A stretch of DNA of 64,000 nt from an uncultured bacterium (GCA_964421875.1 CAYQZD010000004.1:4082-68081); one strand, 5' to 3'; shown: positions 55,486 to 63,434, counted from the first letter of the stretch. Program-made: numbers and translations. The notes: generated from the sequence alone by a model not told the origin.

Positions 55486-55959
55486 TCAATCTGAATCCGG
55501 CTTAGCATTACGCAGGATTTCCAGGAGTTTCTTGCGGTTTGCCTGGGAGATTTCACGGCCGGAGAGGGCGATACCGGGGGTTTTTCGCGCCAAGGCTCTG
55601 AGTTCGGAGACTTTCAATGAGGACAAATTATACCGCGCTAACTTCGGAGTATCGGGACGCGCAGCTCTCTCTTTAAAGATAACCTCCGCTTCACACTCCT
55701 CGTGAGGGCGGGGGATGACGTGAGTCGATATCAGCTCGCCGGCTTTGTCCGCAGCGGCGGCTCCGGCGGAAACGGCGGATTTAACCGCACCAACTTCACC
55801 GGTAACCTTGACCAGCACCAATCCTCCGCTGGAAAGTTCGTATCCCCGAAGGATAACCTTGGCGGCTTTGACCATTGCGTCGGCGGCTTCCACCGCGCCC
55901 ACAAAGCCGCGGGTTTCTATCATACCCAGGGCTCGATTATGGGGAAGCGGTTCTTTCAT
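55486..55959 (-). CDS. bacterial microcompartment shell protein, BMC-H domain, with ~65-aa C-terminal extension
   Basis: [26 protein letters not shown] ... [24 protein letters not shown] ... THVIPRPH is a near-canonical PduA/EutM/CcmK fold sequence. The extension [38 protein letters not shown] resembles a Rho-N/SAP-like helix-extended-helix motif. Confidence 0.8.
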
Positions 55960-56075
55960 CCAGAGAATGAAATATTTAGACTTACAATCAGCTTAAAGCT
56001 CTTCAACTCTTTTTTCCATATATCTATACAATGTATGAATTTGAAATCAAAATAACAAGTATAAGGTAATAAAAA

Positions 56076-57914
56076 TCATTTCATATAAAGCACCCTGGCG
56101 GTTTTCACATTTCCGCCGGACTGCGCTTTGATGAAGTAGACGCCGGAGGTCAATCCCTGCGGATTCCAATTCACAGTGTGGACACCTGAATGCAACCGCC
56201 CCTCAAAGAGTGAACCAACCTCCCCGCCCTGAACATTGTATGCTTTAACAGAAACCTCAGCCGCATCACTTAGATTGAAACGAATGACTGTTTCCGAGTT
56301 GAAGGGATTGGGTGAAGTGGAGAATTTAAAACCGACGCTTTTTTTCTGCAAGGTGATTATTTTCTCTACCGGCAAGCCGCCGCCCCTCGCATCGCGCCTG
56401 ATGAAGGCGATTCCCACCGAATCGGGGACATTGCGGCTATAGTTGTGGACTATCATAATGCCCCTGGTGCCGGTTTCGTTTTCGATGCCTACGGTGGCAG
56501 AGAAAGGATTCATCACCTCCGGATACTGGAAACTTATAGTTCCGTCCGGGAACAAAATAACCTGGAAAGTCTCATATTCCGCCGTTCCCACACGAGGCAT
56601 TTCGTAAAATTCAACAACAAACCGGGTGGGATTGTGATAGAGTTTAGTGAAAATGTGCCGGGGTTTACCGGTGGGGTCGAACCGGTCCCAGAAGGGAGCG
56701 ATGATGTTGTTGGGCTGGGTGTCACAGGGGATGGGAGTGTCCCAATATGACGGCGAATAGTTATTGAAAGCGATGAATCCATTGGAACAGACATACAATG
56801 TGTCGTAGGTATTGTCGTAAAAGGGGAAGGTGAAGCCGATGGGGATGGGGTCGGTGAATTCGTTGGCGACCGAGGGCCACCACTGGCCTAAAACCCTTAC
56901 ATCATCGTGCCAGTAGAACCTGGTCCTGACCCAGTCATAGTATCCGTCGCCCTCGTCGGTGTATCTCATAACGCGCAGGTGGCTGAGGTCGCCCACGAAA
57001 AGGTGGTGTCCGGCTACGGTTACATCCTTGGTGCCGGAAAACAGCGGGGGGAATGTACTGAGCCATTCAGGTTCGGTGATATCGGTGACATCGAACATTT
57101 TCGCCCCTTCAGACCAATTTCCTAAGAATACCCGCTCATTGGCATATTCGATATAGCGGTCGAGGGAAATCGGATTGCGAAAGTAAACAAGGTTAGGCAT
57201 ATAGGGATTACTAACATCGACCACGGCGAATCCGTATCTATAGGTGGCGAAATACACATATTCCTCGTCTTTAGTCAGCCAGGGATATTGACTCGAAGGA
57301 ATAGGAAGAAAGGAGACGTAAGCGGGATTTTCCGGAATGGAGATATCCCAAATCTCCAGCCCTTGATGATGTATTCCCAAATACATGTAGTTTTCGCTGA
57401 GTTTTATACTATATGCGCCCCCATTCATGGATACTCTCGCGACTTGAATTGGATTCAGCCTATCCTCAATATTGAAAACGACAACACCGCCGTTATAATC
57501 GGTAACATACAAGTAATCACCGCGAGCTTCAAGGTCGACAGCATTTTGCCGGGCTGTGGTTTCTCCCAAATAAGTAACGAGCGGTAAGTTTTGGAGGTCC
57601 ACCATATGCACGCTATATGACGACCCGCCGCCGGAACAGTAGAGAGTGTTTTCCGCAACCGTGAAATAGCAGGGAAAGGGGAAAAATAAGCTTGAAACCA
57701 TGGTTGGTATTGAGGGATCTAAAACGTCTGCGACTATCATCTGCACCGGATATTTGCAGACGAAACAGTAATCACCATAAGCGCGGAGATGCCTCCCGTT
57801 ATCCAGATCGGGGATTTCCATCCGCCCCACTTCCCACATCTGGCAAAAACCTGTTGACGCGGTAAGCGCCGCTAACACGATTACAGTAAGCGATTTCATG
57901 ATGCTATCCTCCAT
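56076..57914 (-). CDS. T9SS cargo protein (612 aa) with LVIVD-type beta-propeller repeats and the ~130-aa domain shared with CDS 44587-47121
   Basis: Signal peptide. Repeats YLYVTDYNGGVVVFNI, YMYLGIHHQGLEIWDIS, YVYFATYRYGFAVVDVS. C-terminal T9SS CTD (AEVSVKAYNVQGGEVGSLFEG...SGVYFIKAQSGG...VLYMK). Confidence 0.7.
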   Translation of the reverse strand: MEDSIMKSLTVIVLAALTASTGFCQMWEVGRMEIPDLDNGRHLRAYGDYCFVCKYPVQMIVADVLDPSIPTMVSSLFFPFPCYFTVAENTLYCSGGGSSYSVHMVDLQNLPLVTYLGETTARQNAVDLEARGDYLYVTDYNGGVVVFNIEDRLNPIQVARVSMNGGAYSIKLSENYMYLGIHHQGLEIWDISIPENPAYVSFLPIPSSQYPWLTKDEEYVYFATYRYGFAVVDVSNPYMPNLVYFRNPISLDRYIEYANERVFLGNWSEGAKMFDVTDITEPEWLSTFPPLFSGTKDVTVAGHHLFVGDLSHLRVMRYTDEGDGYYDWVRTRFYWHDDVRVLGQWWPSVANEFTDPIPIGFTFPFYDNTYDTLYVCSNGFIAFNNYSPSYWDTPIPCDTQPNNIIAPFWDRFDPTGKPRHIFTKLYHNPTRFVVEFYEMPRVGTAEYETFQVILFPDGTISFQYPEVMNPFSATVGIENETGTRGIMIVHNYSRNVPDSVGIAFIRRDARGGGLPVEKIITLQKKSVGFKFSTSPNPFNSETVIRFNLSDAAEVSVKAYNVQGGEVGSLFEGRLHSGVHTVNWNPQGLTSGVYFIKAQSGGNVKTARVLYMK

Positions 57915-57959
57915 TATGACTGGATAACTAATGTCTGCTTTCAGTAAAATTTGTCAGCA

Positions 57960-58886
57960 TTATTTGGTTTTTCTCACCCAAAAACTCCCCGGTTTGGTAA
58001 TCCCTTCCACATAAGTAGGGAAAGCTCTTTTAAGCGGTTCCGGATGTTTAAGATTCATATAATTCCCCGCCCAGAGGACTTCGAAGCTGTCGTTGAAAGC
58101 TAAGAAAGCCTGCAATAGATACTGCTCGTTCCAGAACCGGAACCGATCCCGCACCCATTCTTTAGGGTATTCTTGGGGAAGAAAGATGTCGTGGATATGG
58201 ACGATGACTCCCCGTTTTAATCGGGGGAGGATTTCCAGGTATTCGCACTGCACATCCCCCCCGATTTTCAGGACGTGGCTGGAGTCGATGAAGAGAATAT
58301 CGCCCTCCCGCAGGTCCTCGAATTCACTCAGGGGAACCTCCTGCACTCTGGCTTGGATGAAGCGGGACAGCCCGGGTATCCCGGCTTTGAGGAATTCTCT
58401 GGGGTAGGGCTCGACAGCGATGAACTCACATTCAGCGCCCTCTTCAGCATTCTTCCGCGCCGCTTGCGCGGAGAGTAAAGTTGAATAGCCGGAGCCTATC
58501 TCCATCATTTTCTTAGGCTTGAAATGGCGAATCATACAATAAAGGATTTCTCCGTCCACAGGACCGAAATCAGGGCAGTTCAGGTAGTACCGGTTAGGGT
58601 TGGAGGTCTTTTCGCGGGGGAAAGCGCCGTATTCAGCGCTATAATCAGCGGCGAACGCTTTCAATAGCTCAATCTGCGCCTCATCCCGGAGGTCGATTCC
58701 CGTCATTTCGGTCTGTTTGTCCCAAAGGTCATCCCTCAACTCGCGGCTGTTGGGGATGGGCATATAATAATGGCTGGGAGTGATGTGCACTCCCAACCGC
58801 TCGAAAAATAAATATACGGCTTTGGCTATTCGGTTGAAAACTCCTTTTTCGATACAATTCAATAAGCTCAAATTAATAATCCTCAT
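57960..58886 (-). CDS. class I SAM-dependent methyltransferase (Methyltransf_24/TylF-like)
   Basis: MEIGSGYST motif I. DILFIDSSH. 4-nt overlap with the upstream cargo gene. Confidence 0.6.
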   Translation of the reverse strand: MRIINLSLLNCIEKGVFNRIAKAVYLFFERLGVHITPSHYYMPIPNSRELRDDLWDKQTEMTGIDLRDEAQIELLKAFAADYSAEYGAFPREKTSNPNRYYLNCPDFGPVDGEILYCMIRHFKPKKMMEIGSGYSTLLSAQAARKNAEEGAECEFIAVEPYPREFLKAGIPGLSRFIQARVQEVPLSEFEDLREGDILFIDSSHVLKIGGDVQCEYLEILPRLKRGVIVHIHDIFLPQEYPKEWVRDRFRFWNEQYLLQAFLAFNDSFEVLWAGNYMNLKHPEPLKRAFPTYVEGITKPGSFWVRKTK

Positions 58887-60481
58887 TTAATCAGTAAGAC
58901 TCGTTGTATGAGGCTTTTACTTACGGTTTCTATTCTTACAAAATATATACCTGAAGGCAGGTTTTCCGCGTTCCATTCCACTTCTCCGATTCCGGCGGGC
59001 TGGTTCCCGGCGAGAATGTCCGCCGCCTCCCTGCCCTGCAAATCGAAGGCTTTCACCGAAACGAATCCCTCCTGTGGAATGGTGAAGGAGATGCGGGTGG
59101 AGTTGTTGAAGGGGTTGGGGGAGGCGGAAAGTGATAATCCTGTAAGTTCATAATTCTTTTCGGCTTTTATCGGTTCATTTTCTTCCCATCCGATAAGCTG
59201 CCAGTCGCCAAGATATTCTTCATCGGGGTGTCCGCTCGCGGCTTTCACGAACATAAACGAGTCCCGGTCTTCTATATCATAGGGATGATCTCCGACCAAA
59301 CCTTCTACTCTATAGAATCCTGCCGGCGCGCGGCTTGGAACATAAAAACGTAATTCACGATATAAAGTGTCATTGGGAAAAATAGTCAGATTTTGATAAA
59401 GTGTAAAAGGATCGAGAACTTGTCCGTTTGGTACATACACAATGAACCATAAGTCAAATTGAGTGTTGATTCTGGTGCTGGTTACCTGCACCCCAAATCT
59501 CACCCAGCCTCCCCCCGCCGGGATTATTATAGGGGGATTTAGGGGGAAAAGTTGAATCTCTAATTCGCCCTGCGGAGTCTGGTCATAATAGAGAGCTCCG
59601 ATATCGGAACGCGTGCTGTCAGGATCCATTCGGGTGGGATCGCCGGTGTCGATGCAAGGAGAATTCTCCAGTAAGAAGTAGGCCTCCGCCCCTGTCCCGC
59701 CAACGAACAAAGGGTCAACATAGATGTTGCTGTCGCCGGGGATGCAATTATACCAAGCCATCCTGTTGCCGTAATTGCAGTTATAGTCAAGCAGAGAATT
59801 GGTCGGAGTAACTCGGGGCCAATAGAAAACTCCTCTTTCGTTGTTGAAAGCGGTAATATTATTCACAAACACAAAATCGGAATCGCTCCAGCAAACCATA
59901 AAACCGTCATAGATATAGCAATTGACCAATGTATTATTTATTATATCGATATATCTGCTGTAAGGCATAGGCCAATCGGCGTCGATATAGATGTTAGCGT
60001 ATCTGTTGTTTGCGATAATGTTAAAGTACACATCCACTCCAAAACATTGCTGTATTTCCAAACCACAACCAACTGGGTCATTACAATCATGCAGATAATT
60101 TTTTAAAATACTGACTTTATAACAATTCCTCACTACTATACATTCATCCCAGCAGTTGCGGATTTCAAAACCTTGGATAATACAATGGCTGGAATTGTAC
60201 ATTTCGATTCCACGGAATACATTCCGACCGTCGATAGTACAAACATCCGGTTCAAGAAAACCGGAGCCGGTCAGAGTCACGCCATTAAGACTGTCAATAT
60301 AAACATTCTCCTCATATAAGCCCGGCGCAACTTGAATCTCATCGCCATACACAGCCGAATCCACTGCCGCTTGAATTGTGGGATATTGCGCTGGCACATG
60401 GAGGATATCGGCGTGCGCGGTGAATAAAACAAACAACAGGATTGATGCGCATAGGATTGAAAAACGCATTTCGACCTCCAA
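58883..60481 (-). CDS. T9SS cargo protein with right-handed parallel beta-helix (pectate-lyase-like fold) domain
   Basis: Signal peptide. Repeated NN[TI]I..N beta-helix rungs. T9SS CTD (GFVSVKAFDLQGREAADILAG...SGIYFVRIET...VLLIK). Confidence 0.7.
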   Translation of the reverse strand: MEVEMRFSILCASILLFVLFTAHADILHVPAQYPTIQAAVDSAVYGDEIQVAPGLYEENVYIDSLNGVTLTGSGFLEPDVCTIDGRNVFRGIEMYNSSHCIIQGFEIRNCWDECIVVRNCYKVSILKNYLHDCNDPVGCGLEIQQCFGVDVYFNIIANNRYANIYIDADWPMPYSRYIDIINNTLVNCYIYDGFMVCWSDSDFVFVNNITAFNNERGVFYWPRVTPTNSLLDYNCNYGNRMAWYNCIPGDSNIYVDPLFVGGTGAEAYFLLENSPCIDTGDPTRMDPDSTRSDIGALYYDQTPQGELEIQLFPLNPPIIIPAGGGWVRFGVQVTSTRINTQFDLWFIVYVPNGQVLDPFTLYQNLTIFPNDTLYRELRFYVPSRAPAGFYRVEGLVGDHPYDIEDRDSFMFVKAASGHPDEEYLGDWQLIGWEENEPIKAEKNYELTGLSLSASPNPFNNSTRISFTIPQEGFVSVKAFDLQGREAADILAGNQPAGIGEVEWNAENLPSGIYFVRIETVSKSLIQRVLLIK

Positions 60482-60515
60482 AACAGAATTTTGATTGATG
60501 CCAATTAGTATTTCA

Positions 60516-62096
60516 TTACTTCATCAATAACACTTTATACGCAGCGACCTGCCCCCGATATTGAATTTTAATAAAATAAATCCCGGAGGGCAGTCCGGCG
60601 GCGTCCCAGTAAACAGATGATGTCCCGGCTTCACCCCGCCCGGAGAACAGTTCCGCAGCCTTCCGGCCCAGCGCGTCATAAGCCGCGATTTCCAGATAAC
60701 CGGACTCGGGTAATGAGAAAACAACCTCGGTGATGTTGTTGAAGGGGTTGGGGGAAGCGGTGACCGAATATCCGTTTTGTGTTGATATTACCATAGGAAT
60801 TTCGTATTTTTCTTTTTTTCCCCATCCCCATATCTTGCAGAAAGCTGATGCAGAAAACTCCCCACTATCATAAGGCTGCTTATAGAATGAGAAGGAATCG
60901 CTGTCGACAATCTCGTTCGAGTACCGTCCCACCATTCCCACCAACCAATAGGTCCCCGACATAGCTATTGGGGATATTTCCATGGTGAGGGTTCGATGCA
61001 TAGTCCCGTTTCCGGGAAGGAATAGTCCCTGCCGCAGTATCATCGGAGAAATCACATATCCGGAAGGGAGATTTAACGCACTCCAAGCGTCGAAGCGCGA
61101 GTAGGAAGAGGAATTATTCTGAATAGTAACATTGAACTGGAAAGAATCGCCGCATACGGGAATCACTATGGGTGGATTTACCGGTTCAAGCTCAATGCTG
61201 AGGTCGAGCTGTCCGGATTGCTGAAAATAGAATGCGCCCATATCTGAACGAGTAGAGTCTGGGTCCATTCGAGTGGGGTCACCCGCGTCAATGCAAGGGG
61301 AGTTAGGCTGCAGAAAATACGCCTCCGCACCGATTCCGCCAGTGAAACACGGATTAGAATGCATACATCCTACTCCGGGAGTCAATCTTACCCAATTTGT
61401 CCCACCGTTTCCAAAAACATCGTTATAACTAGTTATTGCGCCATATTGGTTAACTGTACTTTCAACTCCATCATCATTATTGTAAGCGACAATGTTATTG
61501 ACAATCTGTAATCCGGTAGAATTATTTCGTATTAATATTCCATTAGCGTTTGATATACCGTTACTATAAACAATTGTATTATTGATAATCCTGATAAAAT
61601 TGGAGTTAAGCGCCCAAAGATTGGTATATCCATTCCTTTCGGCAACACAATGATGGATTAGTATATCTTCACTCCCTTGCATTGAAACAGCCACAGAATA
61701 GTCCTGGTAATTATCATGCGCATAAATATTTGAAATTCTAATCTTATTAGAATACCAGACTCTCACACCTTGAAAAACTCCGGCAATTTCAAAGTCGCTG
61801 ACACCGCAATCATAACAATTATTAAAAGTGATACCGGAAACACTTGAACCGCCGAATGCGATTATTGTCCGATTCGCCCCTAAAAAACCATTGCCTCTAA
61901 TGACTATTCCCGATTTGCTGTTTGCAGTAGCTGGATAATAAATTCCCGACGCAACTACAATTTCATCGCCCGGCTGAGCGGCATTGACAGCTTGTTGAAT
62001 AGTAGGGTATTGTGCAGGTACGTGGAGGATAACGGCGTTGAGTGTATAGAGAGGAGCGAAAACTACTAATGTAATTAGGAAGAAATGTCTAAACAT
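60516..62096 (-). CDS. T9SS cargo protein with parallel beta-helix domain (paralog of 58883-60481)
   Basis: Shared N-terminal motif LHVPAQYPTIQ[AQ]AV..A..GDEI.VA.G.Y with its neighbour. Beta-helix rungs. T9SS CTD (LEIAAYDALGRKAAELFSG...SGIYFIKIQYRG...VLLMK). Confidence 0.7.
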   Translation of the reverse strand: MFRHFFLITLVVFAPLYTLNAVILHVPAQYPTIQQAVNAAQPGDEIVVASGIYYPATANSKSGIVIRGNGFLGANRTIIAFGGSSVSGITFNNCYDCGVSDFEIAGVFQGVRVWYSNKIRISNIYAHDNYQDYSVAVSMQGSEDILIHHCVAERNGYTNLWALNSNFIRIINNTIVYSNGISNANGILIRNNSTGLQIVNNIVAYNNDDGVESTVNQYGAITSYNDVFGNGGTNWVRLTPGVGCMHSNPCFTGGIGAEAYFLQPNSPCIDAGDPTRMDPDSTRSDMGAFYFQQSGQLDLSIELEPVNPPIVIPVCGDSFQFNVTIQNNSSSYSRFDAWSALNLPSGYVISPMILRQGLFLPGNGTMHRTLTMEISPIAMSGTYWLVGMVGRYSNEIVDSDSFSFYKQPYDSGEFSASAFCKIWGWGKKEKYEIPMVISTQNGYSVTASPNPFNNITEVVFSLPESGYLEIAAYDALGRKAAELFSGRGEAGTSSVYWDAAGLPSGIYFIKIQYRGQVAAYKVLLMK

Positions 62097-62120
62097 CGCA
62101 ACACCCCGCAGATTTTTGGA

Positions 62121-62768
62121 TTACTTTTTTAAAGCGAAGTAATATTGCGATACGAAAAAATCCCGCAATAAAGTCAGTGTAAAGATATTAATAGTTTTCT
62201 CAGGTAAACGTAATCTATTACCTGATTTGACAACTGTGAAACCAGCTTCTTGAAATAAGTTATAGGCCGTCTTTTTTGTAAAAAATCTTAGATGCGTTCG
62301 GTCTAAAATACCTTCATCTTTATATTCCCAGTTTCCCAAGAATACTAAATCGAACAGAATCCGCCAATTCCTAATATTAGGAAGGCTTACAACAATCTGA
62401 CCATCATCTCGTAATAAAGTGTATGCATTCTTTAATAGTCTTAATGGATTAACAAGATGTTCTAAAATATCACCGCATATAATCAAATCGAATGAATCTT
62501 CTTTAAACGGCAATGGCTGAGTATTTAAATCAACTTCAAATGCATTATCCAGTATTTCCTTTGCCTTCACTACCGATTTACTGTCGATTTCTACACCGGC
62601 AGCATATTCAGCTTGGAAATAATCTTTAAAAAACCGGCCTGTATATCCTTTTCCGCATCCTACATCCAAAATAGAATGCGGTTTGGTTGTAACATACGGT
62701 ATTAATTCCTTTCTGATATGGGAATAATAATCCTCGATTTGCTCTTTAGGATTCAGGAACGATGGCAT
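62121..62768 (-). CDS. class I SAM-dependent methyltransferase (Methyltransf_11/23-like)
   Basis: ILDVGCGKGYTG motif I. LIICGDILEHL motif. Start overlaps the stop of the BMC-H gene. Confidence 0.75.
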   Translation of the reverse strand: MPSFLNPKEQIEDYYSHIRKELIPYVTTKPHSILDVGCGKGYTGRFFKDYFQAEYAAGVEIDSKSVVKAKEILDNAFEVDLNTQPLPFKEDSFDLIICGDILEHLVNPLRLLKNAYTLLRDDGQIVVSLPNIRNWRILFDLVFLGNWEYKDEGILDRTHLRFFTKKTAYNLFQEAGFTVVKSGNRLRLPEKTINIFTLTLLRDFFVSQYYFALKK

Positions 62769-63073
62769 TAAATCTCTCCGGTCGATTCTCCCTGCTTCTG
62801 CGGAATTATCATCTCCACTTCCTGGTGAGGCCTGGGGATGACGTGGACTGATACCAGTTCGCCAACCTTATCGGCGGCGGCGGCGCCGGCGTCGGTGGCG
62901 GCTTTGACCGCTCCCACATCCCCCCTGACGAACACGGTAACATATCCCCCCCCGATTTTTTCCTTACCGACCAAGGCTACCTTGGCGGCTTTGACCATAG
63001 CGTCGGCGGCTTCGACCGCGCCGACCAGCCCCCTGGTTTCAATCATTCCCAGGGCTTCCATTACTAAGGCCAT
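62768..63073 (-). CDS. bacterial microcompartment shell protein BMC-H (PduA/EutM/CcmK-like), 101 aa
   Basis: [79 protein letters not shown] aligns almost residue-for-residue with PduA. Confidence 0.85.
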
Positions 63074-63147
63074 ATAATTCCCCGAATTTATCTCGGTTAA
63101 ACTTTATTCCTATAAAATATCAATATAAGTTAGTGAAGCGCCACAAT

Positions 63148-63282
63148 TAAATTGTCATTCCCACAAGTGAACGAAGTGAACACGTCGGGAATCTGAACCT
63201 GAAATCTCACTGCTGTCAGATTCCGGACAAGCTGGAATGACAGCAGTGATGAAGCTAACTTCATATAGATAAAGTGATACAC
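63148..63282. repeat. MITE-like element copy E (divergent interior; conserved AAATTGTCATTCC start and GGAATGAC...AACTTCATATAGATAAAGTGATAC end)
   Basis: Direct reading. Hairpins ATTCCC..GGGAAT and TGCTGTCAGATTCC../GGAATGACAGCA. Confidence 0.6.
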
Positions 63283-63434
63283 TTTAAATTGTGTATCGTT
63301 TCAACATAATAATTATTTAGGACTTTGTCAACAATTTCAGAAAAAAAATCCCGGACCTAAAAACAACTATGATTGAACGCAGCTGACTCCGCCTTTTTGA
63401 CTTTTAAGTAAATCTTATCTAAATTATTCAGATT

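Follow-up and report, generated by a model that had tools for sequence, protein, structure and literature searches.

Two genes for hexameric shell proteins of bacterial microcompartments (BMC-H) enclose, in the DNA of an uncultured bacterium, a string of genes for methyltransferases and T9SS cargo proteins. The question this locus raises is whether shell proteins have here acquired a new use among such neighbours, or whether the neighbourhood is the trace of an old insertion. The window, by which we mean the whole stretch of 64 kb that was analysed, was examined together with relatives of the locus in other genomes.

Gene content and borders of the block

The block occupies 55486 to 63073 and consists of seven co-directional minus-strand genes; all seven ORFs are present, in the order claimed by the preliminary description, with a BMC-H gene capping each end:

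62768..63073, minus strand: BMC-H1 (H1), standard single-domain BMC hexamer shell protein, 101 aa (PF00936, E=3e-29)
62121..62768, minus strand: MT23, class I SAM-dependent methyltransferase, 215 aa (Methyltransf_23/11, E=5e-23)
60516..62096, minus strand: BH1, right-handed beta-helix T9SS type A cargo, 526 aa (Beta_helix, NosD and Por_Secre_tail)
58883..60481, minus strand: BH2, paralog of BH1, ORF of 532 aa (Beta_helix, E=3e-11, and Por_Secre_tail)
57960..58886, minus strand: MT24, Methyltransf_24 SAM methyltransferase, 308 aa (PF13578, E=3e-14)
56076..57914, minus strand: LVIVD/NIDO T9SS cargo, ORF of 612 aa (LVIVD, E=5e-17, NIDO and Por_Secre_tail)
55486..55959, minus strand: BMC-H2 (H2), BMC-H with C-terminal extension, 157 aa (PF00936, E=2e-27)
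55504..55623, minus strand: C-terminal module at residues ~113-152 of BMC-H2, a probable helix-extended-helix of Rho_N/SAP/LEM-like type
63074..63434, minus strand: intergenic region upstream of the block, with its probable promoter and structured 5′ leader

The stop codon of H1 and the start codon of MT23 share one nucleotide (TAATG), the BH2 stop and the MT24 start overlap by 4 nt, the other intergenic gaps inside the block measure 24-116 bp, and no terminator is predicted within the block in the window sequence. The seven genes are spaced tightly enough for a predicted co-transcription from the region 5′ of BMC-H1. Upstream, the block is bordered by a 360-bp intergenic region and then a divergent Metallophos/LpxH-like gene, and downstream by a convergent hybrid histidine kinase gene. 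On the minus strand of the upstream region, TTGACA-17-TATGTT at 63331-63303 comes closest to a sigma-70-like site, the count of such sites being not above that of shuffled sequences; the leader (63074-63300) has a folding z of -3.66 and includes a unique 41-nt hairpin at 63208-63248, and an Rfam search of the upstream region gave no family matches.

That microcompartment enzymes, BMC-P and BMC-T are lacking holds for the whole window, by family search and tblastn: its ORFs of at least 120 aa include neither Aldedh nor PduL nor any further BMC signature family, the two BMC-H genes are its only BMC-domain genes, with no BMC-T, and tblastn with 102 BMC-P queries detects no BMC-P, the same queries matching at 54 of 62 canonical BMC-H loci as a positive control. 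The window thus holds no canonical BMC main locus of metabolosome or carboxysome type, and genes for a transporter, kinase, aldolase or dehydrogenase are absent from the block itself. Around loci with the extended type of H2 (H2ext), a BMC-P occurs within ~10 kb in 0 of 19 cases, versus 54 of the 62 other BMC-H loci. From the relatives and the literature, BMC-P and enzymes would be encoded elsewhere in this genome. A ‘fragmented’ BMC-P was found in a Zixibacteria MAG.

The shell-protein pair and the FRAG loci

Both shell proteins are single-domain BMC-H proteins, at 101 bits (H1) and 95 bits (H2) against a curated PF00936 threshold of 24.5 bits, as the preliminary description had supposed. Both match the PDB chains of PduA, EutM and the H. 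ochraceum BMC-H (E=1e-26 to 1e-40), which are the best solved relatives of H1, and against the NCBIfam EutM equivalog H1 scores 133.9 bits, at a cut-off of 133. The topology is non-permuted, the alignment to the Pfam model being collinear and full length (positions 1-75) and the AF2 model having the order beta-alpha-beta-beta-alpha-beta; the interface motifs DAMVKAAK and IPRPH are present in H1 and H2 alike, with K at the last position of KAAN, a change that most relatives share.

In H2 the PF00936 domain covers residues 10-85 and is followed by the extension of ~65 aa that had been noted earlier; the AF2 model of H2 has a mean pLDDT of 86.7. A start giving 157 aa is preferred over the 145 aa of the NCBI call P0001 because the N-terminal M-x-E-x-LPH motif is kept in relatives. 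The tail is a flexible linker and a three-helix module that appears to be Rho_N/SAP-like, of a type that occurs on hundreds of BMC-H families, whose fold neighbours are Rho_N/SAP/LEM helix-extended-helix (HeH) modules, with no EutK entry among these. The module resembles nucleic-acid-binding HeH domains, and could bind nucleic acid or a partner protein. The tail of EutK is a helix-turn-helix domain. Like EutK, H2 adds a small helical domain on the C-terminal side of its BMC-H domain, and it matches the EutK NCBIfam model through the BMC domain only; the match, however, is far below the cut-off (64 vs 218 bits) and leaves the extension uncovered.

Similar pairs are known from fragmented (FRAG) BMCs, for which, to our knowledge, no function has been established. 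The premise of the preliminary description, that in every described BMC locus the hexamers come with BMC-P and enzymes, leaves out of account these catalogued types, whose shell genes are spread over as many as six locations and some of whose loci are without enzymes (Sutter et al. 2021, Nat Commun 12:3809, PMC8217296, Suppl. Data 2). FRAG3, with eight catalogued loci from Calditrichaeota, KB1 and LCP-89, has a standard BMC-H and a BMC-H with a C-terminal extension of ~50 residues, remote from BMC-P and enzymes; in FRAG1, found in Ignavibacteria, Kryptonia and Bacteroidetes, Melioribacter roseus included, the extension is larger, and the catalog itself likens its H2 to EutK (PMC8217296). BMC-P triplets (green, grey and orange clades) are present elsewhere in FRAG1 and FRAG3 genomes, some FRAG types have no reported enzymes or encapsulation peptides, and several FRAG, SPU and PVM types have been linked to sugar or sugar-phosphate catabolism (Sutter et al., PMC8217296).

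The pair of the window has the same make-up, a standard H1 and an H2 extended by ~65 aa, and its genes are likewise remote from BMC-P and enzymes, both in the 64 kb and, as to BMC-P, around the 19 related loci. With FRAG3, a type found in candidate phyla of the FCB group, it shares a locus devoid of BMC-P and enzymes, the relatives of its H2 including an LCP-89 MAG (L004, 52%) and a Calditrichaceae MAG (L006, 53%); it differs in that five unrelated genes split the pair and in that its clade is outside the eight catalogued loci. FRAG3 also has a DeoC aldolase beside a BMC-P, a feature for which the comparison covers the 64 kb of the window alone. FRAG1 offers the same tandem pair, the same module at the end of H2 and a locus of shell proteins only, but its H2 linkers are much longer (185-343 aa in total), its H2 is only 37-43% identical to that of the window, and a conserved YbbR-like gene, which the window does not have, follows it. 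Satellite loci of canonical BMCs, such as CcmK3/K4 of beta-carboxysomes, also place hexamer genes off the main locus and among unrelated genes, although they complement a recognisable main locus with BMC-P and enzymes, whereas FRAG types are without one. What is known, then, is the FRAG-type pair of H1 and H2ext; what is found here is this pair split by a cassette of methyltransferases and T9SS cargo, in a clade outside the catalogued FRAG3 loci.

The pair in related genomes

H1 and H2 are paralogs from an ancestrally tandem pair, and because of this their co-occurrence is not due to chance. Loci with H1 and H2ext directly side by side number at least 18 and come from Ignavibacteria, Bacteroidota, Calditrichaceae, LCP-89 and the sister Group B; in Ignavibacteria the two genes are located among genes for RelA/SpoT, RuvX, a YbbR-like protein, Tmk and CtpA, that is, in a housekeeping context, and in the Calditrichaceae relative L006 the divergent Metallophos neighbour is the same as in the window, yet the pair is uninterrupted. 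In Planctomycetota the pair brackets an aldehyde dehydrogenase, the core enzyme of metabolosomes. The idea of a satellite shell locus, one of two put forward in the preliminary description, is thereby supported, the pair matching FRAG1 and FRAG3 and being free of intervening genes in most relatives.

The split itself occurs in one clade only, in four lineages including that of the window (H2 Group A), with 2-6 genes in between that are always methyltransferases and T9SS cargo. In the H2 tree, a simple neighbour-joining tree without support values, all the H2 proteins that accompany a cassette form one clade and everything outside is unsplit, which shows a single-clade origin of the split. The sister group includes an LCP-89 MAG and the next outgroup is a Calditrichaceae MAG, the clade of the window being labelled ‘bacterium’, ‘FCB group bacterium’ or ‘Zixibacteria’ in NCBI names. 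The H2 proteins of the split lineages are only 55-66% identical to that of the window and the outer flanks all differ, and still the bracket of H1, cassette and H2 is kept. Conservation of the neighbourhood, one of the comparisons suggested beforehand, extends to four lineages of this clade and not to other clades, where the pair is uninterrupted. H1 is 88-91% identical to the H1 of unsplit relatives and 87-90% to that of split ones, and because it is equally similar to both it gives no sign of neofunctionalisation.

The translational coupling that had been proposed is real as a 1-nt overlap of H1 and MT23, but it is specific to the window: L146 has 11 bp at the same junction, and L082 and L153 have a spacer of ~390-470 bp there, which in L082 holds an intrinsic terminator behind H1. 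Before H2 the relatives have 250-700 bp and HicB/ParE toxin-antitoxin genes, and downstream of H2 an InhA-like T9SS cargo gene is found in Group A and B relatives. The window block contains neither an integrase nor a transposase, and the genes called in the fetched relatives include none.

The cassette is AT-rich and its composition is unlike that of the shell genes: GC3 is 0.68 in H1, like the rest of the genome, and 0.58 in H2, falling to 0.43 in BH1, 0.48 in BH2 and 0.29 in MT23, where the total GC is 0.34 and the break from H1 is sharp. This break recurs in all four split lineages (GC3 of 0.58-0.70 for H1 vs 0.29-0.42 for MT23).

BH1, BH2 and the LVIVD protein are T9SS type A cargo, as had been claimed, with a Sec-type N-terminus that both methyltransferases lack, and a sorting domain (TIGR04183/PF18962) that scores 33-36 bits against the TIGR04183 cut-off of 23 (33 bits in BH1). 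Judged by eye, the N-terminus of BH1 (MFRHFFLITLVVFAPLYTLNA) is signal-peptide-like, and those of BH2 (MRFSILCASILLFVLFTAHA) and of the LVIVD protein (MKSLTVIVLAALTASTGFCQ) are hydrophobic and signal-like. The true start of BH2 is likely at 60469, giving 528 aa, as also called in a Logan contig, and that of the LVIVD protein at 57899, giving 607 aa. BH1 and BH2 are paralogs with 37% identity and have weak Pel9A-like, NosD and Beta_helix matches, and no catalytic family was identified with Pfam and NCBIfam in any of the three proteins. Orthologs of BH1 (45% identical) are present in L002/L146, L153 and L082, and those of the LVIVD protein (49-51%) stand upstream of H2 in L151 and L153.

MT23 matches no NCBIfam equivalog above cut-off, and MT24 has no NCBIfam match. 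At 35-43% identity, the homologs of MT23 are found in polysaccharide clusters with Wzx, Wzy, Wzz, GT2, GT1 and FkbM genes, and 15 of its 16 full-length homologs, with neighbours of these Wzx/Wzy/Wzz/GT/FkbM kinds, have no BMC gene nearby; orthologs at 48-52% identity adjoin H1 only in Group A relatives. The methyltransferases would act on surface glycans. Since its alignment with homologs located away from BMC genes runs over the whole length, MT23 carries no added extension of the encapsulation type. In L158/L161 the gene directly upstream of H2 is likewise an MT24 ortholog (57% identical), and in L153/L151 that position is taken by a different enzyme of the Methyltransf_23/11 type.

Origin of the arrangement and its alternatives

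The reading that we consider probable is that a cassette of surface-protein genes has interrupted a satellite shell locus of FRAG type, so that the odd neighbourhood would be due to an old insertion and not to a new use of shell proteins. H1 and H2 would be the hexamer pair of a fragmented BMC resembling FRAG3 or FRAG1, H1 as the standard facet hexamer, and H2, by analogy with solved BMC shells, presenting its three-helix module through the linker on the cytosol-facing side; together they would build a closed shell, their genes scattered, as in FRAG types, away from those of BMC-P and of recognisable enzymes. Ancestrally adjacent, the two genes would have received the cassette in the ancestor from which one uncultured FCB-group clade descends; the cassette, comprising cytoplasmic SAM methyltransferases of the surface-polysaccharide type and beta-helix and LVIVD proteins exported by Sec and T9SS, would later have diversified in place through duplication, loss, replacement of one methyltransferase and the arrival of toxin-antitoxin genes. 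Regions of variable content between conserved anchors are comparable, in that two anchors bracket 2-6 genes and TA modules whose composition is unlike their own; the content here, however, is non-random, always methyltransferases and T9SS type A cargo, largely from one ancestral insertion. Shell proteins and cassette most likely do separate jobs, the former in a microcompartment shell and the latter in envelope or surface decoration.

Some observations sit less easily with an insertion: conservation of the bracket in four lineages is somewhat above that of a purely accidental neighbourhood, the gene kinds are always the same and the refilling of one methyltransferase position by a non-orthologous enzyme hints at selection on the make-up, and the window combines the H1/MT23 overlap with the lack of a predicted terminator. 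A functional link keeps some probability because the bracket persists despite different outer flanks. These same facts, with the InhA-like cargo gene downstream of H2 and the finding of no enzymes for FRAG BMCs in the catalog (PMC8217296), would favour a functional operon in which a BMC-H lattice organises methyltransferases acting on T9SS cargo or a glycan anchor, or in which the methyltransferases are encapsulated enzymes. We regard such an operon as quite unlikely: the cargo leaves the cytoplasm, because it has signal peptides and T9SS sorting domains, MT23 has no encapsulation-type extension, the codon composition differs from that of the shell genes, the L082 terminator and the long spacers with TA genes break the string, all other clades have the pair without a cassette, and T9SS cargo is common in the genome (two more genes among ~40 annotated elsewhere in the window). 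For the suggestion that BMC-H proteins form a scaffold on which cargo is modified or exported there is no positive support, for much the same reasons, namely the Sec/T9SS export, the differing composition, the MT23 homologs in polysaccharide clusters that lack BMC genes and the restriction of the H1/MT23 coupling to the window. In its wider form, with the methyltransferases as the missing enzymes of FRAG shells, or with BMC-H lattices, tethered by the tail, as the cytoplasmic platform on which surface glycans or T9SS cargo are modified, the proposal seems to us unlikely, as does a functional coupling of shell and cassette overall; if true, it would give a first clue to the function of FRAG microcompartments, or show BMC shell proteins in a role outside organelles.

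The secreted proteins could also be a clue to a substrate, if they degraded or bound glycans whose products fed the FRAG microcompartment, the linkage then reflecting co-regulation of uptake and catabolism, by analogy with the polysaccharide-derived fucose and rhamnose that feed the planctomycetal PVM BMC. The weak Pel9A-like, NosD and Beta_helix matches, the ties of FRAG, SPU and PVM types to sugars (PMC8217296) and the aldehyde dehydrogenase in Planctomycetota are in keeping with this, but it appears very unlikely given the absence of a catalytic family in the three proteins, of a transporter, kinase, aldolase or dehydrogenase in the block, and the poor fit of polysaccharide-biosynthesis methyltransferases to a catabolic locus. 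Finally, H1 and H2 might form no closed microcompartment at all and instead give sheets, tubes, or scaffolds associated with nucleoid or RNA through the Rho_N/SAP-like module, a possibility to which the absence of BMC-P within ~10 kb in 19 of 19 loci, the housekeeping context in Ignavibacteria (RelA/SpoT, RuvX, Tmk), the likeness to HeH domains and the FRAG types without enzymes or encapsulation peptides (PMC8217296) lend something, and which we nevertheless judge distinctly unlikely: BMC-P triplets are present elsewhere in FRAG genomes (PMC8217296), a ‘fragmented’ BMC-P occurs in the Zixibacteria MAG, the planctomycetal pair brackets an aldehyde dehydrogenase, and H1, strongly conserved, keeps the canonical interface motifs.

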